Part shown: positions 18,501-43,061 of the stretch, piece after piece
How positions within the stretch are numbered: position 1 is the first letter of the stretch
How the letters are laid out: every line of letters begins with the position of its first letter
IMG/VR virus record: IMGVR_UViG_3300035703_002708
DNA length: 64,000 bases
Source: a virus
Taxonomy: Duplodnaviria; Caudoviricetes
Strand: one strand, 5' to 3'
Made by a program: the position numbers and the translations under genes
The notes under the pieces: model-generated
Told to the model about the DNA's origin: nothing
The model's input: only the letters and a program-made list of their open reading frames with translations
Databases searched by the model: none

Positions 18501-21500
18501 TCAGGATATTACATACCACAAACAGGTTATATATATTATAACGGTACGAATCCAAGTCCACAATTACAAGTTGTGGGTGAAATTTTCAGGTCTTGGAATG
18601 TAGGAGATGTTGTGAACGACTTATCAAACGGACAATGTTATTCTGCGTACCAATTGGTTTCACCATCGACACCATACTCACAAAATGTTTCAATTACATC
18701 TTACACCGATTGCTGGTCTTGTGTCCAAGCGATAGGTTGTCCTTTCATTTTCGAGGATTGTCAATCAGGAACAACACAATTTACAATTAATGTGATACCA
18801 ACAGGTCAAACACCTCAGTACGGAACAAATTACTCTTATGAATTAGTTTCAGGGGACACAACAGTTACCGCATATGGTGGAGACTCAGGAAATGAGGCGT
18901 GTTTGTTTTTCACAGAAATACCAACTTTGGGAATAGTTTCTATATATCCAGTATCACCAATCCAAAACCCCCTAATTGGAGATTGTATAACTTGTGAAAC
19001 ATCCTACCCAAGTTACCCAACACGAGCCAAATTTACAGATTGTTGCACTCAAACTGAAGAAATATATTTTAATATAAATTACCCAAGTATTCAGTGGATG
19101 ATAGGAGATGTTGTGTTATACACCATACCAAACAGTGATACAAAAAAATGTTACGAATTAATTGAATTTGATACTTTTAATACGTTCCCTGCTGGTGTAT
19201 GGAATTTCAATGACCCCGACTATAAGGGCTCACCATACAACTGTGAAAAATGTTTTGCCTTTAACAAATGTGAATGTCAAGAAGTTTTCACACCATATGA
19301 CTTTTTAAGTTGTTGTGACAATTCTACAATACTTGTTATGGGTATTTTACCTGAAAACTTTGTTTTAGGAAATGTGGTTATGTATGAAGGAGTACCATAC
19401 TCGATGATTGGTCCTTCAGTAAATCCGATTGATGGTGGTTGTTTTGCAGTTTTTGATTACGTTGACTGTACTGCGGCAAATAATGAGGAGGTTAATCCTT
19501 GCGGATTTAGTTTAGGTCAGTACGAATATTGTTGTAACACTTCTGAGATTATTGAAGTGTGGGAACCAGGTTATACAAACTCAAGTTATACAAACTTTTT
19601 ATATAATAATAAATGTTGGAATAGACGTGGTAATGGAGCAGGAACAACAGGCGAAACTATTTTTTGGACAGGATACACTTCGTGTGAAGAGTGTTATCCA
19701 AATTCAATAGGATATGTTTTAAGTTCTTGTACAATAGACGGTTTGACAATCACAGCACAAACTTCTGATTACAGTACATTGAATGTTAATAGTTTTTACA
19801 ATTTCACATCAGGAATTACTGATACTTTTTATTACGATTCAACATTTGTTTATGGTACAGGTTTTGGTTATACAGGTTCCTCTGTTGGTCAAGTAAATGA
19901 TATAATTTATTATCCACCAAAAGATGACCTATTCTTCGGTGGTATTTTCAACTCATATGATGGCACATCTGTAAATAACTATGCAAGAATCGACAATCTT
20001 GGAAATTTTGTTGGACTATTTGATGCAACTGGTTTAAATACTGGAGATACTTCCTTTATAAGTCAAATCGGAATTCAATCCAATGAAAAACTTATTGTTG
20101 TTGGTAATTTTACATCCTACAGTAGTAATAATGTTGGAAGAATAGTTAGGACTAATTCTGAGGGTGCTTATGACAACACATTTTCAGGTGACACTGGTTT
20201 TAACAATTTAGTTATCGATATTGCAATAAACAATTCAGACCAAATATATTGTGCGGGGGTCTTTTCAACGTATAGAAGTTTTTCGGCCATAGGATTAGCG
20301 AGATTAGGTCCTGACGGTATTTTTGACACAGGATTTACTTCTCATTTCACTTCCGCCACAAACCTAAAAATCAGAGAAATAGAAGTCCAAACTGATAATA
20401 AATTGATAGTTGTGGGGGACATTCCTAATTTATATAGTGGAATTACTTTCGGACCAATTAGAAGATTGAATTCTGATGGTAGTATAGATTTTTCTTTCTC
20501 TGGAACTGTTAGTGGCTTTGGTGGTTCTATTGCTTCGGTAGAAATACAAAATGATGGAAAAATAGTGTGTGGTGGTAATTTTACGACGGCAAACGCACAA
20601 ACCTTGTCAGGTATGGTTAGGTTTACAAGTGGTGGCACTGTTGATAATACCTTTAATGCTCAATCATGGATTTCGACCTATAACATAGAATCCATTTCAA
20701 AAATTAAACTTTTAGAAGACGGTAAATTTTTGGTATATGGTGGGGACTTAAGTCTCAATCGGTATGTGTTTTATATCGGAACTAATGGAGAGTTATTACA
20801 AACAATACAAATCAATGGAGGTGGTGTCTCTGATATAGAAAATTTATTACCTGGCAGTGGAAGATACGTCTTAGGTGGTAACTTTACAGGAGTAACGATA
20901 AATAGTGTTTCATACAGCGCCAATAGTGTATTTGCAATTGAACGTGTGGTTGAAAATTGTTTTAAAGTCATTGATACCGTAACTGGTTGTACTGCATCTG
21001 AGGCAACAATAGTAGTTGCGGGTACTGAATATGCTTCATGTGCAAGTTGTTTGATACCTCCTACAATGACACCAACACCAACTCAGACACCGACAATAAC
21101 TCCAACTAAAACACCAAGTCCAACACCAACACAGACTAAAACTCCTACGCAAACCCCAACTCAGACTCCAACTCAGACCCCTACGCAGACACAAACACCT
21201 ACCGAAACGCCGACACAAACGCCAACACAGACCCCTACTCAAACTCCTACTCAAACTCCTACTCAAACACAGACACCAACACAAACACAGACACCAACAC
21301 CGAGTAGATTCCCTGACTGTGTTGATTGTGAATTATCAGGACTTTCATATTATTCTGGTTACAGTGATTGTACATGTTATTCAATAACTATGACCACTCT
21401 TGCCGCGGTATTTGCGTACAACTGTTACGGAGTGTATACAGTAATTCTAACATCAGGAACATATTGTTTAAGAGAAATAGTTGACTCAAATGGAAATACA

Positions 21501-22139
21501 GTGATATCTCAAGGGTCATGTGAATCAGGTGTATGTGCTTCACCTACACCAACGCCAACACAGACACCAACGCCAACAATGACACCTAGTAAAACTCCTC
21601 CAATTACACCAACACCAACAAAGTTATGTTGTGCACCAACAATAACTAATGTAGACTTCGGAACCAATACAATTAGAAACTTCGATTGGATGGATGTGTT
21701 TTACACACAAGGATGTGGGTTAGCGGACGGATATATAGTGACACTACAAACAGCAAACGCTAGTTACATTTACAATGTACCCACACCAAATCCTGAAGGT
21801 TATTTCAGAGTTAATTACGTGGCATCAAGAGGTGGAATAATCTCAATTACAAAAGTCTGCGATAACGGAGCACTTTTGGTTTCTAACCAATATTATGTCG
21901 GTAAACCAGGGTCATCATTCCTACTCGTAAGATGGACAAGGTGCCCAAGTTTCGGAACTTCTATACCTTTCTATACATACGTTTACTCTAATGTACAACA
22001 GTCCCCATCTCCTAGTTCGATATACACACCATCAGGTAACCCACTTAATGGTGTTTACACCAGTGCCACTACGTTAAACGAAGGACCTATTGATAGATAC
22101 CTAAATGGTACATACTGGCAATCAGGTTCGTGCCCATAA
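9567..22139 (+). CDS. Giant (4190 aa) mucin-like fibre/adhesin protein with two delta-60-repeat propellers, one YVTN-type propeller, many Cys modules and Thr/Pro tracts
   Basis: Delta-60 motifs (QNDNKILVGGNF, QNDGKILVG, QNDGKIVCGGNF) at ~10860-11925 and ~19850-20945. YVTN-like repeats (TINVGTYPAVLYYN...KLYTLNLNSNDVTVVD) at ~17585-18590. Twelve CPDCDI(T/S)GNTYLDG repeats. Confidence 0.8.
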   Translation: MCELILTGLTYSCGPYTIDLCDCQGGNCIKIIVTPDVGNLTGTITYPDGSSETYENGIIDINIPEGYSEDDCIIFTVFNSDGEPVVDKPEPPNFSQTPTPGLTPTPTKTINYVEPPRPGGGGPGIVLDFPSQTPTLTPTPSPATPTPTVSLTNTPTVTVTTTLTQTMTVTPTVTPTPLTPNLGFSSCCDNSFFSLKEETQFISTLDPTKTYYIQTNEFVGCVTIVSQRPTDFFEFISISSGYVDCVDCLSATTGNNFCPTQTPTPTITITPTRPIKAFKDCCENIYIGLTEESELLYSLDPNKSYYLVTDGYSGCTTIVNEQPTLYYNFVSILEYNDCDLCRIDKVGVICPSPTPTVTSTPTVTPTVTPTITSTPTITPTITPTFVEKFCYELSACTTNLVYSGCSPLSLNLDKTYQILLDIDEGSRNTKLQTGTGFNGSVFTVEYQNDNKILVGGNFSQYNGLSTSNEIIRLNQDGSIDNTFNYAGPSYVYINDIVEQNDGKILVGLGQVFGNSGNILQRLNSDGSLDGTFTPLTCPNGGAISKILILPDSTIVIGGTFNNPNSTFFHKLIRLFPDGSVDPFFGTGGFLPNLGVESVYDVDVLSDGTLICVGSFSEYKFISANKIVPILPNGTINVGFSYGSGFDDDVYAVKVLNDDSILVGGKFTQYNGTSSSCVIKLLSDGSIDTSFVVGSGFSGGVVYDITVDTSGDYIFVGDFTDYKNQTANGIIKLDSNGDIVTTFVTGIGLDNTGYKIDVNSDGSEIIVGGIFSSYNNCVNNNLVSIINSVTSVTDCFTIINSGSCSCCQNTIVSASTEYINCNDCLVLTPTPTPTPTITPTNTKTQTITPTISVTKTVTRTLNPTRTPTHTPTPTVTPTNLIPIFSSCCGTINIQFTDPNVALGLTIGEFYFVEADSYSACTLLTLGYPNLILDTATGVTTVTDCVTCITDYLPSGICPTPTQTPTSTLTPTPTILPIVLSSCCGNFLIDVSDQVELLETLSQYTETTFLFTSDDGFSACTSLARAVPNTLFNFTSFRVFIDCDACNTFLNGTVVCPTQTPTPTETKTSTPTLTPTITPTITVTNTKTPTITPTITITSSITPTETPTSTVTTTQTPTNTQTPTVTKTPLASPQETRTPTPTPTITPTETPTQTVTPTITNTQTVTTTETPTQTPTITVTKTETPTNTPTVTTTITNTATQTLTVTNTITPTETVTPTVSPTNTPSISATLTPGVTKTPTRTETPTQTPTNTITPTITQTPTQTKTPTQTQTPTKTETPTVTATKTPTKTQTPTITPTVTPTISVTPTITQTQIQFCPDCDITGNTYLDGVTLTPTVTSTITPTITQTSTVTPTVTLTNSVTPTQTQTNTQTPTITPTTTLTPTITPTITQTPTITQTQIQFCPDCDISGNTYLDGVTLTPTVTGTITPTITPTNTQTPSKTPTKTPTQTKTPTKTQTPTITPTKTPTQTKTPTKTPTQTKTPTKTPTPTITPTKTETPTVTPTKTPTKSVTPTITPTQTQTPTVTPTITQTQIQFCPDCDITGNTYLDGVTLTPTVTSTVTPSISPTATITPTITTTKTVTPTSTPTTSVSPSLTPTTSVSPSLTPTNTQTPTITQTQIQFCPDCDISGNTYLDGVTLTPTVTSTVTPSITPTNTKTPTITPTKTKTPTITPTKTVTNSQTPTKTVTNTPTQTPTLTRTPNEACPDCDITGNTYLDGVTLTPTVTSTITPSISPTSTITPSISPTSTITPTVTPTTSISPSLTPTTSISPSLTPTQTVTPTITQTQISTCPDCDISGNTYLDGVTLTPTVTSTITPSITPTTSVTPTITQTTTITPTITPTKTQTPTITPTITKTPTQIASCPDCDITGNTYLDGVTLTPTVTSTITPSISPTPTVTPSISPTSSVTPTVTPTTSISPSLTPTTSISPSLTPTNTQTPTITKTQISTCPDCDISGNTYLDGVTLTPTVTSTVTPSITLTSTITPSISPTSTKTPTITPTKTQTPTITPTITKTPTQIAACPDCDITGNTYLDGVTLTPTVTSTVTPSITPTSSITPSISPTKTQTPTITPTTSVSPSLTPTLSVSPSLTPNVTVTPTITQTQIQFCPDCDISGNTYLDGVTLTPTVTSTITPSFTPTQSQTPTVTPTVTTTKTPTQTQTPTITPTITQTPTITPTITQTQVSSCPDCDITGNTYLDGVTLTPTVTSSLTPSITPTSSVTPTNTQTPTITPTITPTQTITPTITPTTSISPSLTPTNTQTPTITKTQIQFCPDCDISGNTYLDGVTLTPTVTSTITPTKTPTPTRPQLTFSGCDDVFSGQSFNFSGFGMDFTTIYDLNPSLIYSFSANGIVGCFRIVEGFTQTYYYLTSNTGQTFSTCGICSENNPIESQYPVIQLCQCSGFTNCIWSNGDFTFNTTILFGVSNQIGCWKMISTATTTTTAGYDVPTGQTYDNCVECESGSINRVFSSCCGNYVFNIAEPLQGIIDNLFFEKIYEINTEEFSGCARVVSGFSENNYNLTSLDTNEYFDTCLDCLTATTGSNICPTLTPTPTETPTQTPTTTITPTETVTPTITPTETVTPTQTPTITPTNTQTPTITQTETPTQTPTPTETKTPTPTQTPTITPTITQTPTQTPTQTPTPTITPTKEPDYEVWEFRDCCTETDSKYYRVYNYPSVVLDSVALSGVSALYDYGLTYVDYNNSIYVIASFNLNVVDTSTNTLTQVIDFGNAVVSPTYSPENQKLYVSEYAIDRLVVVDVTTNTTASTINVGTYPAVLYYNSTYEKLYTLNLNSNDVTVVDTTSDTVLINVSVSGSPISYVYNQDNEYLYIFHTNSNYVSVIDTFDDSIVTTINLGAQCDSGIYDPTNQRIYCWGWGDGNYVKVINTNTNTFSNTITTTLLPYNRQSQIVGNYLYIPCNLGIEVIELSSQTSYTSIVVPVGSVEQIILNPTNGYLYVTFTNLGVVIIDPSSNEIIQTNTSFLTSGYYIPQTGYIYYNGTNPSPQLQVVGEIFRSWNVGDVVNDLSNGQCYSAYQLVSPSTPYSQNVSITSYTDCWSCVQAIGCPFIFEDCQSGTTQFTINVIPTGQTPQYGTNYSYELVSGDTTVTAYGGDSGNEACLFFTEIPTLGIVSIYPVSPIQNPLIGDCITCETSYPSYPTRAKFTDCCTQTEEIYFNINYPSIQWMIGDVVLYTIPNSDTKKCYELIEFDTFNTFPAGVWNFNDPDYKGSPYNCEKCFAFNKCECQEVFTPYDFLSCCDNSTILVMGILPENFVLGNVVMYEGVPYSMIGPSVNPIDGGCFAVFDYVDCTAANNEEVNPCGFSLGQYEYCCNTSEIIEVWEPGYTNSSYTNFLYNNKCWNRRGNGAGTTGETIFWTGYTSCEECYPNSIGYVLSSCTIDGLTITAQTSDYSTLNVNSFYNFTSGITDTFYYDSTFVYGTGFGYTGSSVGQVNDIIYYPPKDDLFFGGIFNSYDGTSVNNYARIDNLGNFVGLFDATGLNTGDTSFISQIGIQSNEKLIVVGNFTSYSSNNVGRIVRTNSEGAYDNTFSGDTGFNNLVIDIAINNSDQIYCAGVFSTYRSFSAIGLARLGPDGIFDTGFTSHFTSATNLKIREIEVQTDNKLIVVGDIPNLYSGITFGPIRRLNSDGSIDFSFSGTVSGFGGSIASVEIQNDGKIVCGGNFTTANAQTLSGMVRFTSGGTVDNTFNAQSWISTYNIESISKIKLLEDGKFLVYGGDLSLNRYVFYIGTNGELLQTIQINGGGVSDIENLLPGSGRYVLGGNFTGVTINSVSYSANSVFAIERVVENCFKVIDTVTGCTASEATIVVAGTEYASCASCLIPPTMTPTPTQTPTITPTKTPSPTPTQTKTPTQTPTQTPTQTPTQTQTPTETPTQTPTQTPTQTPTQTPTQTQTPTQTQTPTPSRFPDCVDCELSGLSYYSGYSDCTCYSITMTTLAAVFAYNCYGVYTVILTSGTYCLREIVDSNGNTVISQGSCESGVCASPTPTPTQTPTPTMTPSKTPPITPTPTKLCCAPTITNVDFGTNTIRNFDWMDVFYTQGCGLADGYIVTLQTANASYIYNVPTPNPEGYFRVNYVASRGGIISITKVCDNGALLVSNQYYVGKPGSSFLLVRWTRCPSFGTSIPFYTYVYSNVQQSPSPSSIYTPSGNPLNGVYTSATTLNEGPIDRYLNGTYWQSGSCP
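13509..16430 (+). repeat. Array of 12 CPDCDI(T/S)GNTYLDGVTLTPTVT motifs separated by Thr/Pro linkers; higher-order two-unit repeat
   Basis: First Cys codons at 13509, 13767, 14169, 14427, 14673, 14931, 15147, 15405, 15621, 15879, 16113 and 16371. Confidence 0.95.
13881..14040 (+). repeat. 30-nt tandem coding repeat (TPTKTPTQTK-like)
   Basis: Near-identical aaaacccctactaaaactccaacccaaaca units inside the giant ORF. Confidence 0.8.
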
Positions 22140-22184: not shown

Positions 22185-24545
22185 ATGAACGCTTATATTT
22201 GCATTTCAAGTACTGGTAATACTCCTCTTACAGGATTTACCATTTTTCAAAACGTAGATAACTATCTTACACCGTTGGTTAGTAATGTACCATTGAGTAA
22301 TTTCTTATTACCAAATTGTCCATACGTAGTAACAAATGTTGACCCAAATACAACAATTATAAGATTATATGATTATGGTGCCGGTTGTTGTGTTGATATT
22401 CCATATACCGATGGATTTAACATATGTGACATATGTGTCCCACTAGGTTTCAGTGCCAATAGTTCGCCAAATGTCGGTTCGATATCTGTTGGACAACTAT
22501 CTGGTGGATGTGACCCGTCAATAGGTCAGTATTATTTGGAATGGTATGGTCCTGGTACAGGAAGTACTCAATTAGTATTCACTAGTGGATTCGGTGGACC
22601 AATACCGAATTTTAATTCATACCAAATGGAACATCCGCTTACAGGTACAAGTCAAGTTCCTCTTATTAGTGGGGCTTATAGACCTATAATTAGATATATC
22701 GATACTAATGGTATTATTTATTCTTGGGCTTTTGGTGCTTACGGGGATTGTTTTCAAAACAATCCTTTCATAGTTTTACCATACACGGCAACTAATGGTT
22801 CTGGAGTAGATTACGAACACGAATTAGTTTTCAGTGGAGACCCAAGACCAGGATTTACTCAATCAGGTACTATAGAGTTGTCAGGAACAACTAACTATGT
22901 ACCTTTCAGGTTCGATGGAAACCTAAGTAAAAAAATATTGAGAATCGAGTTTTCAGGAAGTGCTTATCCTGCACCACTACAATTAGAAAATGTATTACTA
23001 GGTTTTATACCTAACACAAACACATTAAATTTTGAAACAACACAATTTGCAAAAGATGGCGGCCCTAACGCCGATTTTTTCACTAGAGTATTATGTTTGA
23101 CAGGTCTAACAAGGAATGCTGGTGACACTCTTACATTTTATATTGATAGTCCCTATACTTCAGCAGAGAATTTTATTACAAATTGGAGTTTTTATTTTGA
23201 CCAATTACCTACCTTTGATTGTACTAGTTGTTTATTGGACACTCCTAAGTACCTTATAAGCGGTGGTTCGTTTAGTGCTTCAAGTGGTACTTGTTCTTCT
23301 ACAACTGTAACCTTTTCAGTGTCAGGATGCTCGTCAACCGTTGACCTCAATAAGGATTTATATAAATATATTTTCAAAAACAGTGGATTTGCATATCCTG
23401 GACCCTATGGGTATAGTGCTAACGCAAATGGTCTAATTCCTGTATCTGTTAATTTGGGTAACGGTATTTCAAAAGAATGTTATGTTGATTTATATTTACC
23501 TGAAAATGTACTTCCTAATGACTGTATTGATATGTCACTTAGCGCCGGTGCACAAGCTCTGGCCAAAATGTATGTTAATATATCAAACACAAGTCCTAAT
23601 ACAAAATTAATTGAATGGTTTTGGACTGATTTTGCAACTAACCCAGTTTCCGCTAATTTGTTCAATTACATCCAACAAAGTTGGACTGATGTGATAACTC
23701 AGTTTACACCTAACGACTATCCAAGTACCGATTATAGATATTATCGAGCTCTTTACTTCCAAGCACCAACAGGTACTGGTGGTTCTACTCAATGTAACGA
23801 TGAGGCCTACATAGGTTGTTTCTTAAATCAAAATACAACCACCGCAACTTTTACTGTGACACCTAGTACAGTACCTAATATCAATATTTATAAAATATCG
23901 ATACAGGGTTCGTTTTTCGCAAATCCACAATTACTTTTGAATTCCTATGGTCCTTGTGATGATGCAAACACTTGTAAATCAATCAATGGTGACCAATATC
24001 AAAACATCGCTAAAAAGGTACAGGATTTTATAAGTGCAACTACAGTTAATATTACTGATACTGGTCTGGTTGGTTTCACACCCAGCCCAATGCCTGGTAA
24101 ACCCATCTCACCAGACTTCTACACCAAAAACCCGTTTCAGGTTTATTATCCCATTTTTATAAACTCACCTGGTAACCCTCAAGGTTCTACCGCAAATACT
24201 AGCAATTTCGCAAGTGTTTACCAATATCAAATGAAGACGTATCCATCATCAGGTGCTTCACCTAATTCACAAACTGTGATTTCTGGTTTGACTGCTGATA
24301 CCTGTAGTTCATTGACAGGTAAGACTTACAATCCTTATAGTGCGGATTCAACTAACTATAGAAGTACTTATCAGAAATATCACTTCTATTATGATATAGT
24401 CGATAATCCAAATGTTACTTTAGGTTATAGTATTTATGCAAATGATATTTTATCAAACGGTCAACCTTCGGGTACTCAAACTTTGATTGCAACAGGTACC
24501 GGCTCAACATTAACAATTATAAATTCTTCCTACTTCACACCATAA
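22185..24545 (+). CDS. Hypothetical beta-rich virion-type protein, paralog of the next gene
   Basis: 786 aa. Shares CPYV...IRL...GCC.(D/E)IP, WYGP...FTSG.G, HPLTG and TF.C..C motifs with 24559..26742. Confidence 0.7.
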   Translation: MNAYICISSTGNTPLTGFTIFQNVDNYLTPLVSNVPLSNFLLPNCPYVVTNVDPNTTIIRLYDYGAGCCVDIPYTDGFNICDICVPLGFSANSSPNVGSISVGQLSGGCDPSIGQYYLEWYGPGTGSTQLVFTSGFGGPIPNFNSYQMEHPLTGTSQVPLISGAYRPIIRYIDTNGIIYSWAFGAYGDCFQNNPFIVLPYTATNGSGVDYEHELVFSGDPRPGFTQSGTIELSGTTNYVPFRFDGNLSKKILRIEFSGSAYPAPLQLENVLLGFIPNTNTLNFETTQFAKDGGPNADFFTRVLCLTGLTRNAGDTLTFYIDSPYTSAENFITNWSFYFDQLPTFDCTSCLLDTPKYLISGGSFSASSGTCSSTTVTFSVSGCSSTVDLNKDLYKYIFKNSGFAYPGPYGYSANANGLIPVSVNLGNGISKECYVDLYLPENVLPNDCIDMSLSAGAQALAKMYVNISNTSPNTKLIEWFWTDFATNPVSANLFNYIQQSWTDVITQFTPNDYPSTDYRYYRALYFQAPTGTGGSTQCNDEAYIGCFLNQNTTTATFTVTPSTVPNINIYKISIQGSFFANPQLLLNSYGPCDDANTCKSINGDQYQNIAKKVQDFISATTVNITDTGLVGFTPSPMPGKPISPDFYTKNPFQVYYPIFINSPGNPQGSTANTSNFASVYQYQMKTYPSSGASPNSQTVISGLTADTCSSLTGKTYNPYSADSTNYRSTYQKYHFYYDIVDNPNVTLGYSIYANDILSNGQPSGTQTLIATGTGSTLTIINSSYFTP

Positions 24546-24558
24546 AAATTAAAACTTT

Positions 24559-26742
24559 ATGCCATTTTCCATAGATTTATGTCTTACTAATACAGGAAAC
24601 ACGGTATTGGGTCCAACCTTTTTAGTTTTTTCTGATACGAATCCTAACGTACCTTTCACAACAATAAATTTATCAGATATTGTTCAGACTGAATGTCCTT
24701 ATGTTTTGAGTGGTGTGCCTGATAATGCAACATCTATAAGGTTATTAAATTTACCAACAGGGTGTTGTATTGAAATTCCGATAACCGGAAATTTGGATTT
24801 ATGTATAATGTGTGATTTAGGATTCAACGTTTATTCGGCAAATACCGTCAGTGTAATTACCGCAGGTAATTTGACTGGTAGTTGTGACGATAATATTACA
24901 GACTATGTCGTTAATTGGTATGGACCTGATAGTAGTACCAACATTCAGTTCACAAGTGGAAAAGGAAATACTTTTACTTATGATTGGATACATCCGTTAA
25001 CAGGAAACTCATCGGTTTTTGCACCAGCCGGCGTCTATACCCCAAAAATAGAATCCATAATACTAAATGGAGAACTTCTCCAAGAAGATTATGGAGTTTT
25101 ATCAAATTGTTTTTCTGCGGTTACTGTTGAAGCATTCAACTGTTCGAATGGAAATAATACCAATCCACCCTCACTTGCACTTACGGCTTATTCACATGTA
25201 ATTGAGTTTAGTCAACAATCACAAGGAAATGTACCACCAAATTTATCGGCGATATTCGAGTTATCTGCAAACACAAATTTCTTGGCCTTTGCTTTTAAGG
25301 GGGCAAGTGTACCAGATTCACTAAAAATTTCTTTTTCAGGTGCTAGCTACTCTACACCATTAGTTATGGAGTATATCACGGTTGGTGATAACCTGACGAC
25401 ATCAAATCTAAACCCAAATTCATTTCCAAAAAGTGCTGACACCCTATTCTTTTTTTCTAAGGTTCTTAATTTACAAGATACTGTAACGGTATTACCTGGC
25501 GATTATTTGATAATCGAGGTAGAACCAAATCCGACAAATCCAAATACTGAATGGACATTGTATTTAAAATGTTTAGAAACTTTCAATTGTGTCAAATGTA
25601 TAGACACAAACACACCACACAAAATATTACAAAGTTCCATAACAGGTATTACTGGCAGTTGCGGTCAGTTACAAATTCAATTTGTTTTGACGGGATGTTC
25701 AAACAGTCAAAATAATTCAGAGGATGTGTTCAAATACTTTTTGAATGATGGATTAACCCAATCCCCACTTGCAAACAATGGGATAACTGTTGGGTCTCAA
25801 TATACAACATTTAATTTATTTTATAGTGCGCTTACATGTAGTTTTAATCAAGCGCCAGGTTTCCCTTATCAAATTTCATGTTATATCTCAGGTTCCGACA
25901 ATATAAATTTTAGAACTTATAGACCAAACGTTAATACTAGAATTCTTGAATTTAAATTTGAAGGACTTTCGGACTTCAATGCTTACCTTTCCAACTTTTT
26001 AGATGCTATGCAGTATAGTGGTTCGTCAGACCCAACAAACATAACTTACTATAGTAGATTATTTCTAAGTGTACCGGCGCCTAGTGGTGGTACACTTTGT
26101 GGTGACAATACCACACGACTTGATTTTACATTACACCCACCTACGTTAGATTACGCAACAGGAACCACTATTGAATTTCCATATAATTATACTTTTTCAA
26201 TTACGTCAACAACCATATCAAACGGTGCCTCATATAATATTTGTGACCAAAATTGTTTGAGTTTTTTAGATGGTACAGTAAATACGGTAAATGCTAGTGT
26301 TACAGGTTCTAGTCTCGATATAACAGGGACAACGACAGTCTCGTCAAGATACCAATATCCATTTTATAATATTTGGAGATTTACAAGTAGCACAACTAAT
26401 CAAACGTCTACATTTTATAATTTCTCAATAAGGTTTCCGACATATTCAAATGCAACCTATGTGGCGTCAGGAACGCCATTACAAAACATTTCAACAATGT
26501 CCGCCACAACCTGTGATTTTTCATCATCCATGTATCAAGACATCTTTGCCGGGGTTACCGAATGGTATCAATATGTTGGTTCTTATTTGCTGCAAAGAAC
26601 AAATCCGAATAATCCTAATGATTTTAGAATCATGGCTTCGGTTATAACTAATGGCCAACCAAGTTTTTTATATGATGTTTTGGCTTACGGAATTTCAGGA
26701 GGCACCGTTTATGCTTCTAACCCAACCTACATTCAATCTTAG
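24559..26742 (+). CDS. Hypothetical beta-rich virion-type protein, paralog of the previous gene
   Basis: 727 aa; collinear motif matches with 22185..24545. Confidence 0.7.
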   Translation: MPFSIDLCLTNTGNTVLGPTFLVFSDTNPNVPFTTINLSDIVQTECPYVLSGVPDNATSIRLLNLPTGCCIEIPITGNLDLCIMCDLGFNVYSANTVSVITAGNLTGSCDDNITDYVVNWYGPDSSTNIQFTSGKGNTFTYDWIHPLTGNSSVFAPAGVYTPKIESIILNGELLQEDYGVLSNCFSAVTVEAFNCSNGNNTNPPSLALTAYSHVIEFSQQSQGNVPPNLSAIFELSANTNFLAFAFKGASVPDSLKISFSGASYSTPLVMEYITVGDNLTTSNLNPNSFPKSADTLFFFSKVLNLQDTVTVLPGDYLIIEVEPNPTNPNTEWTLYLKCLETFNCVKCIDTNTPHKILQSSITGITGSCGQLQIQFVLTGCSNSQNNSEDVFKYFLNDGLTQSPLANNGITVGSQYTTFNLFYSALTCSFNQAPGFPYQISCYISGSDNINFRTYRPNVNTRILEFKFEGLSDFNAYLSNFLDAMQYSGSSDPTNITYYSRLFLSVPAPSGGTLCGDNTTRLDFTLHPPTLDYATGTTIEFPYNYTFSITSTTISNGASYNICDQNCLSFLDGTVNTVNASVTGSSLDITGTTTVSSRYQYPFYNIWRFTSSTTNQTSTFYNFSIRFPTYSNATYVASGTPLQNISTMSATTCDFSSSMYQDIFAGVTEWYQYVGSYLLQRTNPNNPNDFRIMASVITNGQPSFLYDVLAYGISGGTVYASNPTYIQS

Positions 26743-26812
26743 AAAATTAATTTCCTTCTATTTATTTGTCCAACTCATCTCCTATTTTTCTATCAAAATA
26801 GAACAATAATTT

Positions 26813-28063
26813 ATGAAAATATTTATTCAAATTGCCTCTTACAGAGACCCCGAATTAGAAAAAACAGTTAAATCCGCAATTGAGAATGCAAAAAAACCGA
26901 AAAATTTAGTTTTCGGAATTGCTCGTCAATATCATCCTGATGACAAGTTCGACACTTTGGACGAATACAGAAAGGACAAAAGATTTAGAATTTTGGACAT
27001 TCCATATTTGGAATCACAAGGAACTTGTTGGGCAAGAAACCAAATCCAACAATTATATAAAGGTGAAGAATACACCTTACAAATTGATTCCCACATGAGA
27101 TTTGCACCAAATTGGGATGAAGAAATGATTGGTATGGTTAAGCAACTTCAGAAAAAAGGGCACAAAAAACCTTTACTGACAGGATACGTATCATCATTTA
27201 ATCCCGATAATGACCCACAAGAAAGAATTCAAGAACCTTGGAGAATGGTTTTTGATAGGTTTATACCTGAAGGGGCGGTTTTTTTCTTACCTGAAACAAT
27301 TCCTGGTTGGCAAACCCTTACTGAACCTATCACCGCAAGATTTTATTCCGCACACTTTGGTTTTTCACTTGGAAGTTTTGCCGTTGACGTACAGCATGAC
27401 CCCGATTATTACTTTCACGGTGAAGAAATCTCAATCGCGGCAAGAGCATATACTCACGGATATGATTTGTTCCACCCACACAAAGTATTGATTTGGCATG
27501 AATACACAAGAAAAGGAAGAACAAAACAGTGGGACGACGATACAGACTGGGTTACTAAAAACAACAGATGTCATTTAAAAAACAGGAAACTTTTTTCTAT
27601 GGACGGCGAAGTATATAATCCAGAAGAATTTGGTATCTATGGTTTCGGAACTGAACGTAGTTTAAGAGATTATGAAAAATATTCGGGTCTTCTTTTCGAA
27701 AGAAGGGCCATCCAACAATATACAATAGATAAAAACTATCCACCAAATCCATATAATTTTGATAACGAAGAAGATTGGAAAAATAGTTTCGCATCAATAT
27801 TCAAACATTGTATAGATATCGGTTATCATCAGGTACCTGAAACAGATTATGAGTTTTGGGTTGTTGCTTTCCATAATGAATCGGATGAAACAATATACAG
27901 AAAAGATGCCGACGCAGACGAAATTAGACGAATGAAGAACGACCCTGATGGTTACTGTAAAGTTTGGAGGGAATTCCAAACATCACATAAACCTAAGTAT
28001 TGGGTTGTTTGGCCATACTCAACAACCAAAGGTTGGTGTGAAAGAATAACAGGAACTTTATAA
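26813..28063 (+). CDS. GT60-like polypeptide alpha-N-acetylglucosaminyltransferase (Gnt1/OGNT-like, 'GlcNAc' family)
   Basis: KIFIQIASYRDPEL, LQIDSHMRFAPNWD and FHGEEISIAARAYTHGYDLFHP...IWHEY match the family signatures IFVSI.SYRD, QIDSHMRF and FFGEE...RL.THG. Confidence 0.85.
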   Translation: MKIFIQIASYRDPELEKTVKSAIENAKKPKNLVFGIARQYHPDDKFDTLDEYRKDKRFRILDIPYLESQGTCWARNQIQQLYKGEEYTLQIDSHMRFAPNWDEEMIGMVKQLQKKGHKKPLLTGYVSSFNPDNDPQERIQEPWRMVFDRFIPEGAVFFLPETIPGWQTLTEPITARFYSAHFGFSLGSFAVDVQHDPDYYFHGEEISIAARAYTHGYDLFHPHKVLIWHEYTRKGRTKQWDDDTDWVTKNNRCHLKNRKLFSMDGEVYNPEEFGIYGFGTERSLRDYEKYSGLLFERRAIQQYTIDKNYPPNPYNFDNEEDWKNSFASIFKHCIDIGYHQVPETDYEFWVVAFHNESDETIYRKDADADEIRRMKNDPDGYCKVWREFQTSHKPKYWVVWPYSTTKGWCERITGTL

Positions 28064-28065
28064 GT

Positions 28066-28905
28066 ATGATTGAGATACATAATGAATGGGACCCATTTGA
28101 CAATGGAGAGTGGTTCGCAACGGAAAGAAAAAATTTCGGACATAAGTTGTTTGCATATATTATCCCACGAATAATGTCGGAATTATTGAATTACAATTTA
28201 ATTGTTCCAGAAAATTCATACATTGGAAAAATAAACAAAGAAAATGGTAATGAATTTGAGAAAGTTTTATTTCCATATACTAGCATAACCGACAGATTGT
28301 CTTTCACTGACAATGTTGTGGAGCTCAATGACGAATCACTTAATGGTAGTGATATCGAGACATTTGTTAAAAATATAAATGGAAATAAAATATATTCTAA
28401 ATGTCACTGTTCTAATTACAACTACATAAAACCTCACAAGAGTTTGGTTAGAGAAATCCTAAAAGATTTGATAGTACCGAAATCTCACGAAAATGACATA
28501 TTACTTTTTTTGAGGAAAAGTAGAAGAGCACATACATATCGTCTACCTGATAGTTACTATTTGAATATTTTAGAAAACGAAAGTTTTGACAAGATGTACT
28601 TATCGGTGGATGATATTGACAGACACTACAACCTATATCAAAATTTAAAAAAGTATGACCCAATAATACTTGAGGGTGATATACTCGAAAATTTTAAAAA
28701 GGCCACATCATTCAACAAAATGATTTGTTCTCAGGGACAATTTGCGTTTTGGGCAGCTTGGCTGTCTGATGCGGACAAAATATATTGGCCAATAACAAAT
28801 GCAGGGCCTAATGCAGGACCCGAAGTACATCGTCACCACTTAAATTTAAAAGTCGACGACGAAGAAAGGTATACATTTATTAACATAGAAAACATTTATC
28901 ATTGA
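28066..28905 (+). CDS. GT11-like (alpha-1,2-fucosyltransferase-like) glycosyltransferase, divergent
   Basis: NFGHKLFAY (cf. GLGNQLFQY) and MICSQGQFAFWAAWLSDADKIYWP (cf. IIANSTFSWWAA.L...K.II.P). Confidence 0.65.
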   Translation: MIEIHNEWDPFDNGEWFATERKNFGHKLFAYIIPRIMSELLNYNLIVPENSYIGKINKENGNEFEKVLFPYTSITDRLSFTDNVVELNDESLNGSDIETFVKNINGNKIYSKCHCSNYNYIKPHKSLVREILKDLIVPKSHENDILLFLRKSRRAHTYRLPDSYYLNILENESFDKMYLSVDDIDRHYNLYQNLKKYDPIILEGDILENFKKATSFNKMICSQGQFAFWAAWLSDADKIYWPITNAGPNAGPEVHRHHLNLKVDDEERYTFINIENIYH

Positions 28906-29870
28906 TGAAAAAAAAAATTAAAATAACGAGAGGAAATTTTTGTAACAATTGTAGTTATTACTTGGTTAATTATTTAGTAAATTTACTCAAAAAAAATTAT
29001 GATGTAGAAATTTCTAACGACAACCCCGACATAGTTTTTTTCTCCAATCAATTCGTGAGTACAAGTAATTTGGACGAATACACCGGTGAAAATGCTAAAA
29101 CAGAATACGATTTTCCTAACGCAAAGAAAGTTTTCATAAGCGGTGAGGCGGTGGCCAATTACGATTATTATACGACAAAAAGTGACCAACACTTTACAAT
29201 TGGTAAACCTGGTGACTTGAATAACGAAAGGCATTTGAATATTTCATATTTTTCTATTGTTTCGGCATGGCAATTATGGGATGAATGTAAAATGTTCGAT
29301 AGTCCATTTGGTTGGTTAACGCAAAAGAAAAACTTGGGAGAAATTTTAAAAAATAAAAAATATTTTGCGGCAATAGTACAACAATCGACAAATGACTATA
29401 GAAGAGGTTTGTTTGATAACCTTTGTACCATAGAAAAGGTTAGGTCTTGTGGAGGTTTTGAAACTAATATACCTGATTGTTCTTTAGCGAACAGAGGTAG
29501 AACAGAAGCTGAAGCTTACGGCAACAAAGTAAAGTTTCTCTCAGAACATTTTTTTTCCTTACAGGTGCAATCAACGACTTTAGATTGGTTCACCCAAGAA
29601 AAAATAATCCAAGCATATGCCGCAAACACAATACCAATTTTTTGGGGTAACCCACAGATTTTAGATGATGGATTTAATCCTGAATCATTTATTAATTGTC
29701 ATAATTATTCTTCAATAGAAGAGGTTACAGAAAAAGTTAGAGAAATCTATTCTGATAAAAATAAGGTCTATAAAATGTTATTGGAACCTGTCTTTGTTGA
29801 TAACAAGTTACCGAAAGAGTTTGATGAAGATGTTTTGATTGAGTTTTTAGATAAAATTGTTAAACATTAA
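28905..29870 (+). CDS. GT10-like (alpha-1,3/4-fucosyltransferase-like) glycosyltransferase
   Basis: NPDIVFFS, KKVFISGE, KVKFLSEHFFSL...FTQEKIIQAYAANTIPIFWG...FNPESFINCHNY resemble Helicobacter-type FucT. ATG overlaps the upstream TGA (TGATG). Confidence 0.8.
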   Translation: MKKKIKITRGNFCNNCSYYLVNYLVNLLKKNYDVEISNDNPDIVFFSNQFVSTSNLDEYTGENAKTEYDFPNAKKVFISGEAVANYDYYTTKSDQHFTIGKPGDLNNERHLNISYFSIVSAWQLWDECKMFDSPFGWLTQKKNLGEILKNKKYFAAIVQQSTNDYRRGLFDNLCTIEKVRSCGGFETNIPDCSLANRGRTEAEAYGNKVKFLSEHFFSLQVQSTTLDWFTQEKIIQAYAANTIPIFWGNPQILDDGFNPESFINCHNYSSIEEVTEKVREIYSDKNKVYKMLLEPVFVDNKLPKEFDEDVLIEFLDKIVKH

Positions 29871-29875
29871 ATATT

Positions 29876-31312
29876 ATGGAGAATTACAAAAACGTTTCCG
29901 CAGAAAACATTTTGAAAAATTTGAGAGACAGAATAAATCAAGAAAATATAACTTTTTTACAGATAGGTGCAAACGACGGTTATACAAATGACATAGCTAG
30001 TCTAATTTTAAAACCATCAGATAAAGGAGTTTTCGTGGAACCCATAAAAGAAAGTTTCGAAAAGTTAATCTCGAACAAAAAAAACTTCTCGAACTCAAAG
30101 TTCGCTAACTTGGCAATATTACCAGATGAACTGCAAGATTACAACGAGATGAATTTGTTATCCGATTGCCCCTCTAATTTAGGTGCATCATTCAGTTTAT
30201 TTAATCGAGGTAGAATAATCAAAACAGAAAAAGTGGATGTGTCAACACCATTGGAATTTCTATACAGTTATAGAATAAACGATTTGGATTTTTTATTTTG
30301 TAACGCTTCGACATTGGACCATTTAATTGTTTTGGACACCGTGAAACGAATACAACCAAAAGTTTTATTCTTCAACACTTGTTATTGGTGTAACAATGAT
30401 TATGAGTTGGAATTAACAGATACTGTAAAGATAACCATTCCATCAAGAAAAAAAATGAAGGAATTTTTAAATAATTTAAATTATGAGGTTATCGATTTAT
30501 GGGAGAATTCGGAAAACAAAAGAGAAGACATATTGGCATTTAAAAAAGAATTGAATGGGGATTTCGTCGAGATAATAGAACCTAAAGTAATCGAAAAATT
30601 AGAACCAAAACAAGTTAGTATTAATCACAATTTAGAAAAGGTAATTTCATTCACACTTTTCGGTAACAACTTAAAATACTATGTTGGTGCGGAAAAAAAT
30701 ATTGAAATTAATAAAAAACTTCTACCTGATTGGACAAACGTAATATACTACCACAAAGACAGTATTTTACCAGGTTATGTAGAAAAATTGACAAACTTGG
30801 GGGCAAAACTAATCGATGTTAGTTCAATTATTATATCGGGAAAAGAAAGCATCCAATTCCAATATTTTTGGAGATTTTTCAGTTTTTTCGAAGAAGGGAT
30901 TTCTATTGTTAGAGATTTAGATAGTAGATTTTCAGAGAGAGAAGTTAAATACATAAACGAATGGTTGAAATCAAGTAAGAATTACTTTATCATACGAGAC
31001 CATCCTTGGCATTCACAAGTACCTAGTGGATTGTTCGGTATCAAAAATAAAGATGAAGAATTCAAAACACATTTCGAAGACTTTATAAAAAATTCAGAAA
31101 TCAGATGGGGAAGCGACCAAGATATACTATTCCAATTCATGGAAAGAAAAAACAAAAATGAAGTTTTTTATTGTGGATTTGATGATAATGAAAACTATAT
31201 TCCAAGAGACAATAAAAATTTCTTTATAGGTATGCAAATAGACGAAAATGAACAACCACTAAACCCAAGTGCGACTGTTGCATTGGAATTTCTAGAAAGT
31301 ATTAATTTATAA
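29876..31312 (+). CDS. FkbM-like methyltransferase fused to a putative GT-A-type domain
   Basis: N-terminal FLQIGANDG...GVFVEP. C-terminal KVISFTLFG...WRF...VRDLDSR...IIRDHPWH...DQDIL. Confidence 0.6.
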   Translation: MENYKNVSAENILKNLRDRINQENITFLQIGANDGYTNDIASLILKPSDKGVFVEPIKESFEKLISNKKNFSNSKFANLAILPDELQDYNEMNLLSDCPSNLGASFSLFNRGRIIKTEKVDVSTPLEFLYSYRINDLDFLFCNASTLDHLIVLDTVKRIQPKVLFFNTCYWCNNDYELELTDTVKITIPSRKKMKEFLNNLNYEVIDLWENSENKREDILAFKKELNGDFVEIIEPKVIEKLEPKQVSINHNLEKVISFTLFGNNLKYYVGAEKNIEINKKLLPDWTNVIYYHKDSILPGYVEKLTNLGAKLIDVSSIIISGKESIQFQYFWRFFSFFEEGISIVRDLDSRFSEREVKYINEWLKSSKNYFIIRDHPWHSQVPSGLFGIKNKDEEFKTHFEDFIKNSEIRWGSDQDILFQFMERKNKNEVFYCGFDDNENYIPRDNKNFFIGMQIDENEQPLNPSATVALEFLESINL

Positions 31313-31314
31313 TA

Positions 31315-32034
31315 ATGGCTTATTCTTATTGTTTCTGTACAGTTGCAGTCGGTCAACCCTACCTTGATTCTGCTTTGACTTTTGCTAAAGTGCTAAATGA
31401 AAAGTCAAAAGGACATCATATGATTATAGTCACTGATGAAACAGTGGAAGAAAAGATAGACAATACCACCATCACCCTATTACCCAACGACAAAAAAAAA
31501 TTTATAGGACCTTGGTTCAATTGGATGTTGAAATACTATCCAATTAAAGTGGCCAAAGATTTGGGTTTCGATTTCATCGTTTTTTTGGACGCTGATTGGA
31601 GACTAACATCATTTTATGACGAAAATGGATTGAGAAACGTTTTCAAATTTATGGTTGAGTCCGATGTCGACATATGTTTTGAAAGACCATACAGGATAGG
31701 TAGTGCGAAAAAAGATGGGCGACATTGTATTTTTTCACATAAAGTCGAATTTTATAATCTATTGGAAACTGAAGAGTACGATGACGGACACGCATGTAAT
31801 GAACAATTCTTGATTTTAAAAAAATCCGAAAAGTTGAACTTGTTCGTATCTAAGTTTGAAGAACTCCATGATAAAAGTTCCGAACACAATATTTGGCCAT
31901 TTTGTGAAGGATTAGAAATTGGAATGTCAATGTCATTCGCAAAAATGAATATGAATTGGGGTGGATGGGAACCACATTTGAGAAACATGTTTGAATTTAC
32001 ATGTAAAAATGGTGGAATAAATGTTAGATATTAA
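31315..32034 (+). CDS. Putative GT-A fold glycosyltransferase
   Basis: CTVAVGQPY N-terminal strand, WMLKYYPI and a DxD motif in IVFLDADW; located inside the GT cluster. Confidence 0.55.
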   Translation: MAYSYCFCTVAVGQPYLDSALTFAKVLNEKSKGHHMIIVTDETVEEKIDNTTITLLPNDKKKFIGPWFNWMLKYYPIKVAKDLGFDFIVFLDADWRLTSFYDENGLRNVFKFMVESDVDICFERPYRIGSAKKDGRHCIFSHKVEFYNLLETEEYDDGHACNEQFLILKKSEKLNLFVSKFEELHDKSSEHNIWPFCEGLEIGMSMSFAKMNMNWGGWEPHLRNMFEFTCKNGGINVRY

Positions 32035-32042
32035 TTTTATTG

Positions 32043-33671
32043 ATGGAAATAGAGATAAATAGAAAATGTGACATGGTTGAACATTTTGGATTATCAACCG
32101 TTAACGGACTAAGTGCACAACAACACCACGACGCTTTTGGTGTATTTAGAGATTTTGTAAACGAAGTCAAACCGAAAAGAATATTAGAAATAGGAACAGC
32201 ATTAGGCGGTTTCATAGAATTTATACACAGATGTACTGTCGAATCGGATTTAGGTACTGAAATATGGAGTTATGACATCCATAATGTTAGTTGGTACAGT
32301 GAACTCAATCGAAAGGGAATTCGGGTTAGAGTTGAAGATATATTTTCTAATGATTACTCAGCAGTTAAACAGGAAGTAATAGATTTCATCAAATCTGAAG
32401 GTGTCACGATAATAATGTGTGATGGTGGAAACAAAAAAAAGGAATTCGCTATATTATCTAACTACTTAAAAGATGGTGATTTCATATTAGCCCATGATTA
32501 TTGCGAAAATTCTGAAATTTTTCAAGAAAAAATAAATGGAAAAATTTGGAATTGGTGTGAAATATCAAATGACGATATTATCGACTCATGTAAACAAAAT
32601 AATCTAAATTATTTTAAGAAAGAAATATTCGAATCGGTTGTATGGACATGCAGGGTAAAAGATAGGGCTAAACTAATATCCACAGTTAATACAACAAAGA
32701 ATTATATCAAACCTATAAAAAGAAAAAAATTAATCATCCATCAACCGACAAACTTTTACAGTAAAAAAATAAGATATCACAGTATTTTTTGGGATGATTT
32801 GATATCAGAACTATCAATAAGGCATGATGTCATAGTCGACAGATATCACAAGGATTGTCATAAAGGAATTGGTAATGTAAAGTTGGAGTTAGACGTAAAC
32901 GATTCACCGTCTACTTTGAATGTTTTGGAATGTGAAATGATAATTGAGGATTATGAGACAGGTGAAACTAAGATTTTAAGTTGTGCTGACGATTTAACTC
33001 AAGCGGTCCTCAACCTTAAAGAAAATGATAAGGTAACTGAAATTTTTTATTCGCAGTTTATTCCCCAAAAAATATCATCCCACGTTGGGGAACAATTCAT
33101 TGACAAATACAAACCTTGGATTTATTTCCCATTCAATAAATTCGACTTAGATTTTTTCTATCAAAAAAGAAAAAATTTTGGTAAAAACTTAGTTGATAAA
33201 ATGTTTTTCAGCGGCGATTTAGGTTCTAGACCTTTTGTTAAAAATTTCGAAAAAAAATATTTAGACCATTATGGGTATTTAGGTCAATTTGAAACCTATG
33301 CAAACAGTTTGATAACCTATAAGGTCGCACTTTCTGTTGCGGGTAGAGGGGAGTTATGTTATAGAGATGTTGAGTGTATGGCAATGGGAGTTCCATTTAT
33401 AAGATTCGAATACTTCTCAAAATTGAATCCTAACCTAATTCCGAATTACCATTATATATCGGTTGATAGACCTGATAATTTTGACTCTTGGACCAAACTT
33501 GATAGGTTGGGCGAAAAAGAACAGGCGGACTTATTGATAAAAAGATTCTTGGAGGTTAAAGATGACCACGAATTTTTGAAATATATAAGTGACAATGCAA
33601 AAAAATATTACGAAGATTATTTGAGTCCCGAAAACTCAGTAAAACACACAATAAATTTATTAGGTCTTTAA
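32043..33671 (+). CDS. SAM-dependent methyltransferase (Methyltransf_24/CmcI-like) fused to a GT-B-like glycosyltransferase domain
   Basis: RILEIGTALGG and IMCDGG...LKDGDFILAHDY. C-terminal YKVALSVAGRGELCYRDVECMAMGVPFI resembles CgeB/exostosin-like C-domains. ATG is one codon after the track's TTG. Confidence 0.6.
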   Translation: MEIEINRKCDMVEHFGLSTVNGLSAQQHHDAFGVFRDFVNEVKPKRILEIGTALGGFIEFIHRCTVESDLGTEIWSYDIHNVSWYSELNRKGIRVRVEDIFSNDYSAVKQEVIDFIKSEGVTIIMCDGGNKKKEFAILSNYLKDGDFILAHDYCENSEIFQEKINGKIWNWCEISNDDIIDSCKQNNLNYFKKEIFESVVWTCRVKDRAKLISTVNTTKNYIKPIKRKKLIIHQPTNFYSKKIRYHSIFWDDLISELSIRHDVIVDRYHKDCHKGIGNVKLELDVNDSPSTLNVLECEMIIEDYETGETKILSCADDLTQAVLNLKENDKVTEIFYSQFIPQKISSHVGEQFIDKYKPWIYFPFNKFDLDFFYQKRKNFGKNLVDKMFFSGDLGSRPFVKNFEKKYLDHYGYLGQFETYANSLITYKVALSVAGRGELCYRDVECMAMGVPFIRFEYFSKLNPNLIPNYHYISVDRPDNFDSWTKLDRLGEKEQADLLIKRFLEVKDDHEFLKYISDNAKKYYEDYLSPENSVKHTINLLGL

Positions 33672-33674
33672 AAA

Positions 33675-36044: not shown

Positions 36045-36052
36045 TATGATTT

Positions 36053-36077
36053 AATGGGGGAATTTTCCCCCATTTTT
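36053..36077 (+). terminator. Rho-independent terminator after the glycosyltransferase cluster
   Basis: AATGGGGGAA-TT-TTCCCCCATT inverted repeat followed by TTT, 8 nt after the stop. Confidence 0.7.
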
Positions 36078-36100
36078 ACTATCTCATATATTTATTATGT

Positions 36101-43058: not shown

Positions 43059-43061
43059 TTG

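Follow-up and report, generated by a model that had tools for sequence, protein, structure and literature searches.

A PF11397-family glycosyltransferase of a freshwater jumbo myovirus and its possible role in mucin-type glycosylation of Thr/Pro stalk proteins

Mucin-type O-glycosylation that is begun by a polypeptide N-acetylhexosamine (HexNAc)-transferase is regarded as a eukaryotic process. Three enzymes that we take to be members of CAZy family GT60 are the nearest points of reference for the gene described here: Gnt1 of Dictyostelium discoideum, for which we also assume Pfam family PF11397, the OGNT of Trypanosoma cruzi and the Dictyostelium pp-alpha-GlcNAcT2/GntB. Gnt1 is presumably soluble and cytoplasmic, with a DxH-type metal motif. 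OGNT and GntB, which we take to be polypeptide alpha-GlcNAc-transferases acting on Thr in mucin-like repeats, are Golgi membrane proteins of the secretory pathway. Our literature search found no paper linking GT60 or PF11397 to phages. Here we describe a gene at positions 26813-28063 (+ strand) of a 64,000-nucleotide stretch of the viral record IMGVR_UViG_3300035703_002708 (that whole stretch is the window in what follows), which an earlier note, made by a model from the letters alone, had read as a GT60-type protein GlcNAc-transferase of a tailed phage. The product of the gene, a soluble and cytoplasmic GT-A glycosyltransferase, is a new phage representative of the known family PF11397. We put at slightly better than even odds (a probability of roughly 0.55) that this enzyme initiates glycosylation in the cytoplasm by placing HexNAc on Thr residues of the phage's own Thr/Pro stalk proteins, and that a swappable cassette of genes then extends the sugar.

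The open reading frame (ORF) starts with ATG and specifies 416 aa. All of the strings named in the earlier note as signature motifs are present in the translation, IASYRD at residues 7-12, QIDSHMRF at 90-97, FHGEE at 201-205 and THG at 214-216, and the further strings FKHCIDI, DYEFWVVAFH and YWVVWPYS..KGW belong to the C-terminal part of the enzyme. In an alignment of 40 full-length relatives with identities down to 35%, D92, H94, E204, E205 and H229 were invariant, and I7, A8, Y10, R11, D12, Q90, S93, R96, F201, G203 and G216 were conserved in at least 90% of the sequences. This conservation indicates that the intact motifs are the core of the family and rules out a chance match. A DxH-type metal motif and a distal His are present (D92/S93/H94 and H229, invariant or nearly so in the 40 sequences) and, to judge from what is known of the family, D92 and H94 of the DSH motif would bind metal together with H229.

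A hidden Markov model search matched the enzyme to PF11397 (“Glycosyltransferase (GlcNAc)”) with 226.9 bits (E 6.4e-67; curated cut-off 21), and the GT60-type assignment is therefore upheld, with PF11397 and CAZy GT60 equated as they had been in the note. A generic GT2 family did not arise as the best match; PF00535 scored 19.8 bits, under its cut-off of 23.3. Matches to NCBIfam were sub-threshold for the enzyme, as they were for most genes of the cassette. Residues 2-413 matched PHROG 24687 (“glycosyltransferase”, E 1e-169), and because this match is near full length the two-domain protein represents an established phage family. The highest 19-residue hydropathy value was 0.88; the enzyme has no hydrophobic segment that could span a membrane and is thus soluble.

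The predicted structure supports the same assignment. The alignment-based AlphaFold model (pLDDT 95.6, pTM 0.90) was most similar among reviewed UniProt models to Dictyostelium Gnt1 (Q8T1C6; E 2.3e-25, TM 0.66, 26% identity, residues 2-312). The remaining top rows were all polypeptide GalNAc-transferases at ~1e-10, leaving a gap of 14 orders of magnitude between Gnt1 and the next family. Among solved structures the top matches were ppGalNAc-T2, -T4 and -T1 and the Toxoplasma GalNAc-T3, with wall-polymer GT2 enzymes lower. Neither the single protein nor the 40-sequence profile matched a solved GT27 or GT60 chain by sequence, and the likeness to GT27 is one of fold only.

The model places the GT-A catalytic domain at ~1-310 (DSH 92-94, HGEE 202-205, H229) and a separate all-beta FN3/Ig-like sandwich at ~327-416. 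The Pfam match stops at residue 295, with ~50 positions of the Pfam model having no counterpart in the enzyme, and the earlier note's claim of an extra C-terminal domain of ~85 aa is thus confirmed. When folded alone, the C-terminal part gave a seven-stranded sandwich (pLDDT 92). Its best fold matches were FN3 domains (Z 7.6, rmsd 2.7 Å over 78 residues), a middling level at which, with Z below 8, the likeness is not decisive, and no lectin was among the matches listed at this weak level. The only clear match among AlphaFold clusters was the C-terminus of another glycosyltransferase, and an Atlas search with the C-terminal part alone gave no usable match. The domain is real and travels with the enzyme. 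As a speculation, it may dock the enzyme on its substrate.

The window offers conspicuous candidates for that substrate. Four large ORFs in the neighborhood of the enzyme gene contain ~2,560 residues of (TPTxT)n tracts, composed of ~45% Thr and ~15-20% Pro. The ORF at 276-5264 (+, 1662 aa) has a tract of ~630 aa at residues 630-1260, the ORF at 5291-9217 (+, 1308 aa) has five tracts totaling 269 aa, and the ORF at 9567-22139 (+, 4190 aa) combines DUF5122 beta-propeller repeats with 19 tracts totaling 1507 aa. Downstream of the cassette, the ORF at 36101-39913 (+, 1270 aa), a probable appendage protein with homologues in 41 of 80 related loci, has three Thr/Pro linkers (152 aa) that connect its PKD and DUF285 domains. 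None of the four has a signal peptide or membrane segment, and so these candidate acceptors would be modified in the cytoplasm of the infected cell before assembly or release. The last of them shares its N-terminal ~200 aa (40% identity) with the ORF at 42231-43058 (+), from which we infer that the two are a family attached by one common module at the same site on the particle. Many tracts of the 4190-aa protein were observed to open with a recurring DGVTLTPTVTS unit and to end near an ACPDC motif. The tract regions also stood out in base composition, with a GC skew of -0.63 at 2001-4000 and about -0.5 at 12001-16000 (strongly negative across 2-4 kb and 12-17 kb); this is attributable to the ACN/CCN codons of the Thr/Pro tracts and is not a replication feature.

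The association of the enzyme with Thr/Pro proteins extends to other phages and to bacteria of several phyla. A Thr/Pro-rich ORF was located within 10 kb of the enzyme gene in 49 of 79 related phage loci, and in 35 of those 49 this ORF was the next gene upstream on the same strand, with 43-300 nt between its end and the enzyme gene. The coding pattern TPTxTPT was found in 46 of 51 viral records bearing PF11397, always far above a reversed control pattern (0-2 matches). Conversely, when 47 viral records were picked solely for their Thr/Pro repeat DNA, 11 encoded a PF11397 protein, including six of the nine records longer than 100 kb; among cultured phage records, for comparison, four of 50,697 matched the enzyme. 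This converse test and whole bacterial genomes were used in place of a control set of enzyme-free jumbo phages, as fragmentary contigs lose the enzyme and the tracts together and would inflate the association.

In bacteria, a Thr/Pro-rich ORF lay within 8 kb of the homologue in 14 of 80 loci. Three genomes of 4-6 Mb were informative as to how specific this adjacency can be: 54 of the 58 matches to a (TP)4 pattern in a Ralstonia chromosome were in one locus ~1 kb from the homologue, all 37 matches in an Achromobacter genome were ~4 kb from it, and the single match in a Gemmatimonadaceae genome was directly upstream of it. From these counts we estimate that a random 17-kb window would hold such a (TP)4 locus in <1% of cases. 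In addition, a CBM96/fn3 protein with a Thr/Ser/Pro linker of 193 aa is encoded directly ahead of a bacterial protein in which PF11397 is fused to HtrL_YibB (1,196 aa; L294:6016-11591). The N-terminus of the CBM96/fn3 protein has an RRGF motif resembling a twin-arginine export signal, and as far as this resemblance goes the pair would fit cytoplasmic glycosylation before export.

Several observations weigh against a dedicated link between the enzyme and the tracts. No Thr/Pro-rich ORF was present in the flanks of 30 of the 79 related phage loci or of 66 of the 80 bacterial loci, and five of six complete phage records with Thr/Pro repeats do not have the enzyme. Many of the viral records derive from one abundant freshwater lineage, and the counts from them are not independent. 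In the window itself 4.7 kb separate the enzyme gene from the end of the nearest tract-bearing ORF upstream, and 8 kb separate it from the start of the nearest one downstream; the pair of ORFs directly upstream of it has no Thr/Pro tracts. Those two ORFs, at 22185-24545 (+, 786 aa) and 24559-26742 (+, 727 aa), are paralogues with 33% identity over their first 400 aa; they are hypervariable, rich in Ser/Thr/Asn and in Cys, have homologues in only two of 80 related loci and are possibly receptor-binding proteins. The Thr/Pro proteins are candidate virion components, and what we say of donor sugar, acceptor and anomeric outcome in the bacterial and phage subfamily is deduction.

The separation of the enzyme gene from the tract genes in the window and the 30 loci without a nearby Thr/Pro ORF, together with the soluble, cytoplasmic nature of the enzyme, would also suit an enzyme that glycosylates host proteins or other soluble phage proteins, for takeover of the cell or counter-defence, with the Thr/Pro proteins being mere neighbors. 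We regard this as improbable. A lone effector would need no variable extending enzymes, yet the gene is part of a multi-enzyme block that would build a glycan; it also lies among large appendage-like genes, and its bacterial homologues pair with Thr/Pro proteins. In the reading that we favor, the modified proteins belong to the phage and are probably proteins of the particle.

The residue to which the first sugar would be attached was considered in light of Gnt1, which uses hydroxyproline. The earlier note had reported that no prolyl hydroxylase is visible in the window and had favored Thr on that ground. Consistent with this, we found neither a 2-oxoglutarate (2OG) oxygenase nor a prolyl hydroxylase among the window's 28 major ORFs, and PF13640 was absent from all relatives with an identity of 74% or more in the enzyme, among them a complete 322-kb genome and contigs of ~200 kb. 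A dedicated prolyl 4-hydroxylase partner, the trait of the PhyA plus Gnt1 pathway, was accordingly not encountered in the window or the close relatives. Thr is favored because of this absence and because the tracts are ~45% Thr; the ~2,560 residues of tract add to the case that the note had made.

The tracts hold proline too, and a host prolyl hydroxylase could supply hydroxyproline acceptors. An alternative is therefore that a host enzyme, or one that the phage encodes outside the window, hydroxylates proline in the tracts or in another protein, and that this proline then receives GlcNAc in the manner of Gnt1 and Skp1. Apart from the Skp1-hydroxyproline GlcNAc-transferase being the closest characterized fold, this idea draws on relatives in which the two activities occur together. 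In more distant phage relatives (L045/G005, G045, G047 and G049) a gene for a prolyl-hydroxylase-type oxygenase is 4-11 kb from the PF11397 gene (~20 kb in G002), and two of these phages, G005 and G045, have the oxygenase and no Thr/Pro repeat DNA. Three bacterial proteins of 1,641-2,461 aa (P0122, P0123 and P0124) have up to four tandem PF11397 domains fused to prolyl-hydroxylase-type 2OG-Fe(II) oxygenase domains; two of them (P0122 and P0124) also contain a peroxiredoxin (AhpC/TSA) domain. A fusion gene at L293:10001-17386 lies among housekeeping genes (tRNA synthetases, TatABC), an ordinary chromosomal context. The domain make-up of the fusion suggests an analogue, within one polypeptide, of the hydroxylase-plus-Gnt1 pathway, and the phage genes hint at a hydroxyproline-directed sister branch in phages. 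For the enzyme of the window we find a hydroxyproline acceptor improbable, with the proviso that the window covers only about a fifth of the genome: its 28 ORFs include no oxygenase, the close relatives up to 322 kb have none either, and Pro makes up ~15-20% of the tracts versus ~45% for Thr.

The multi-enzyme block mentioned above consists of seven tightly packed, co-directional genes at 26813-36044, all encoding soluble proteins, of which the PF11397 gene is the first. The second (28066-28905, +, 279 aa) is a weak match to GT11 (alpha-1,2-fucosyltransferase-like; E 0.008, below the Pfam cut-off) with a homologue in three of 80 related loci. The third (28902-29870, +, 322 aa) has the C-terminal domain of a GT10-type fucosyltransferase (PF00852, 32.7 bits vs. 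a cut-off of 23.9) and occurs in 10 of the 80 loci. Two genes are leads only: the fourth (29876-31312, +, 478 aa) may encode an FkbM-type methyltransferase followed by a hexosyltransferase-like half, based on an Atlas feature score of 0.95 and a weak NCBIfam FkbM match, and the fifth (31315-32034, +, 239 aa) may have a GT-A nucleotide-sugar transferase fold, GT6/GT8-like, and is a weak homologue of ORF331 of Xanthomonas phage XacN1. The sixth (32040-33671, +, 543 aa) is a weak match to class I methyltransferases, and the last (33675-36044, +, 789 aa) has an N-terminal S-adenosylmethionine (SAM) methyltransferase followed by HtrL_YibB (PF09612, E 1e-16).

The two ends of the cassette are kept in related phages and its middle is exchanged. 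The PF11397 gene was present in 79 and the HtrL_YibB gene in 70 of 80 related phage loci, as against only 3 to 28 loci for the genes between them; the cassettes of other relatives carry instead GT25, TylF-type methyltransferases or a nucleotidyltransferase-HAD enzyme. Even in the closest relatives, with 90% protein identity, DNA similarity was limited to 26757-28061 and 35238-36445, and the ~7 kb between these segments was replaced. The HtrL_YibB gene was single-copy and adjacent to the PF11397 gene in all five of five large relatives, it adjoins the PF11397 homologue in 26 of 80 bacterial loci, and HtrL_YibB is fused to a PF11397 domain in the protein P0175. Given this adjacency in both phages and bacteria, and the fusion, we consider HtrL_YibB to be the pathway partner of the enzyme.

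A cassette of this kind could instead remodel a polysaccharide of the host surface (O-antigen, capsule or lipopolysaccharide (LPS) core), for example to block competing phages, the acceptor then being a glycan or lipid-linked. The namesake of the HtrL/YibB family is encoded beside the LPS core genes of E. coli, and GT10 and GT11 enzymes make Lewis-type O-antigens in some bacteria, both of which are points for such a role. The swapped middle of the cassette resembles variation at O-antigen loci, and polymorphic glycosyltransferase clusters of jumbo phages were read in this way by Iyer et al. 2021 (PMC7824862). The machinery that surface polysaccharides would call for is nevertheless missing from the window: none of its 28 ORFs has a membrane-like segment, and it encodes no membrane protein, flippase, polymerase, transporter or initiating phosphoglycosyltransferase. 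The nearest folds of the PF11397 enzyme are polypeptide transferases, with wall-polymer GT2 enzymes lower, and remodeling of the host surface would leave unexplained why the only or dominant Thr/Pro locus of certain bacterial genomes lies close to the homologue. We therefore judge a host-surface role unlikely.

Sets of phage glycosyltransferases that build glycans on 5-hydroxymethylcytosine are also known (bioRxiv 10.1101/2023.12.21.572611, cited as Pyle et al. 2024 in PMC12619734), and the cassette might by analogy hypermodify the phage DNA against restriction. The window showed no sign of a cytosine methyltransferase, a TET-like oxygenase or a hydroxymethylase. A search of five relatives for a TET/JBP oxygenase (PF12851) gave no match, which is uninformative since control genomes were likewise without one. 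That the fold matches protein-directed transferases, and that bacteria have chromosomal homologues with Thr/Pro neighbors, fit poorly with DNA as the acceptor, and we consider this explanation very improbable indeed.

We hypothesize that the glycosylation of Thr/Pro stalk proteins would proceed as follows, with the metal site and the donor taken from family knowledge and the acceptor from the genomic context. The DSH motif (D92 and H94) and H229 would hold Mn2+-UDP-sugar, the donor being UDP-GlcNAc or another UDP-HexNAc, and the sugar would be transferred with retention of configuration. It would be accepted by the Thr hydroxyls of the (TPTxT)n tracts in the large phage proteins whose genes lie nearby. 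Extension and methylation of this first sugar would then fall to the GT10- and GT11-like enzymes, the further GT-A proteins, the methyltransferases and the HtrL_YibB protein, which is always present. Given that close relatives exchange the middle of the cassette, related phages would share a type of stalk but differ in the glycans on it.

The window represents a jumbo myovirus of freshwater metagenomes. Its tail sheath (53455-56667, 1070 aa), T4-type baseplate hub (58280-59038) and weak gp19-like tube (57690-58178) bear out the tailed-phage setting given in the earlier note, and it also encodes a family B DNA polymerase and an SNF2 helicase. Related IMG/VR records are up to 322 kb long, some with terminal repeats, and their CheckV completeness implies a genome of ~300 kb. 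The same DNA was found in freshwater metagenomes of at least 13 further studies. The nearest non-viral relatives, at 58-68% identity, were in assemblies of Saprospiraceae, Lewinellaceae and other Bacteroidota (L213-L219); some of these are on short contigs and may be phage DNA binned with its host. In a quick, midpoint-rooted tree of viral and bacterial rows only (from which we draw no direction of transfer) the enzyme was in a purely viral clade with neighbors labeled Bacteroidota. These sequence relationships hint at a host in that phylum.

The PF11397-type family as a whole is large, with 4,616 representative clusters at E <= 1e-3. Full-length homologues were found in Bacteroidota, Gemmatimonadota, Verrucomicrobiota, Acidobacteriota, Pseudomonadota and others, complete chromosomes included. 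The earlier note had described the characterized members as protist enzymes; the family itself is by no means chiefly protist and occurs very commonly in bacteria and phages. The overall interpretation offered in the note is supported.

Two other genes of the window attracted our attention. In the ORF at 48224-49762 (-, 512 aa), residues 35-225 make up an entire Fe/Mn superoxide dismutase, and the ~290 aa after it match no family. A DUF6734 protein (E 1e-31) is encoded just ahead of the DNA polymerase gene, at 43059-43850 (+), and has no homologue in the 80 related loci.

Taken together, the data lead us to a wider proposal, which is tentative and which we rate at somewhat below even odds. In it, jumbo phages of lakes run a cytoplasmic mucin-type O-glycosylation in which a GT60-type enzyme places HexNAc on Thr of (TPTxT)n stalks, hundreds to thousands of residues long, in giant appendages of the particle. 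HtrL_YibB and exchangeable fucosyl-, hexosyl- and methyltransferases would extend the sugar, giving glycan “serotypes”; in bacteria of many phyla this core of two enzymes would likewise act on Thr/Pro proteins, and a sister branch would be coupled to prolyl hydroxylases. If this were true, there would be a soluble phage and bacterial version of the eukaryotic process working on very long Thr/Pro stalks, and phage particles would bear heavily glycosylated, mucin-like fibers. It would also explain what load is carried by the Thr/Pro “linkers” that are common in large phage and bacterial surface proteins, and the swappable blocks of sugar genes in jumbo phages would serve to decorate the particle, not to remodel the host surface. 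The enzymes would, in addition, be simple soluble tools for glycoengineering.

In comparison to the known systems, the phage enzyme is closest in fold to Gnt1. The Gnt1 alignment ends at residue 312 of the phage enzyme, ahead of the FN3/Ig-like domain, and the setting differs as well: Gnt1 modifies one hydroxyproline of Skp1 after a dedicated prolyl hydroxylase has acted, whereas the window has neither a hydroxylase nor Skp1 and the likely acceptors are long Thr/Pro tracts. With OGNT and GntB the phage enzyme would share its chemistry, HexNAc on Thr of Thr/Pro-rich repeats; unlike those membrane proteins, it is soluble and would act in the bacterial cytoplasm. The GT27 enzymes (human GalNAc-T2 and T4, Toxoplasma GalNAc-T3), the next-best folds after Gnt1 (E ~1e-10, probability 1.0), have no sequence-level match to it. 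They likewise have a GT-A catalytic domain followed by a beta-rich C-terminal domain, and their substrates are Thr/Ser/Pro-rich mucin tracts. The C-terminal domain is in their case a ricin-type lectin of ~130 aa, in contrast to the ~90-aa FN3-like sandwich of the phage enzyme.

Among phages, a module homologous to that of the window is found in XacN1. Its ORF334 is 47% identical to the enzyme over the full length, its ORF330 is the HtrL_YibB partner (41% identity over 576 aa), and the module adjoins baseplate-wedge genes as well as the gene of a 3313-aa protein that contains a Thr/Pro linker. The two differ in the middle genes of the cassette, with a carbamoyltransferase in XacN1, and in that XacN1 has short Thr/Pro linkers only, versus ~2,560 tract residues in the window. 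Yoshikawa et al. 2018 (PMC5852040) found glycoproteins positive by periodic-acid-Schiff (PAS) staining in XacN1 virions and proposed the phage's own transferases as their makers; that paper assigns no GT60 family, acceptor or linkage. By analogy, the PAS-positive virions provide a hint that a homologous module glycosylates virion proteins. That phages can do so in the cytoplasm has a precedent in mycobacteriophages, whose transferases glycosylate their own structural proteins there (Freeman et al. 2023, as cited in PMC12619734). In that system capsid and tail-tube subunits are modified at their C-termini, in contrast to the Thr/Pro tracts proposed as acceptors for the phage of the window.

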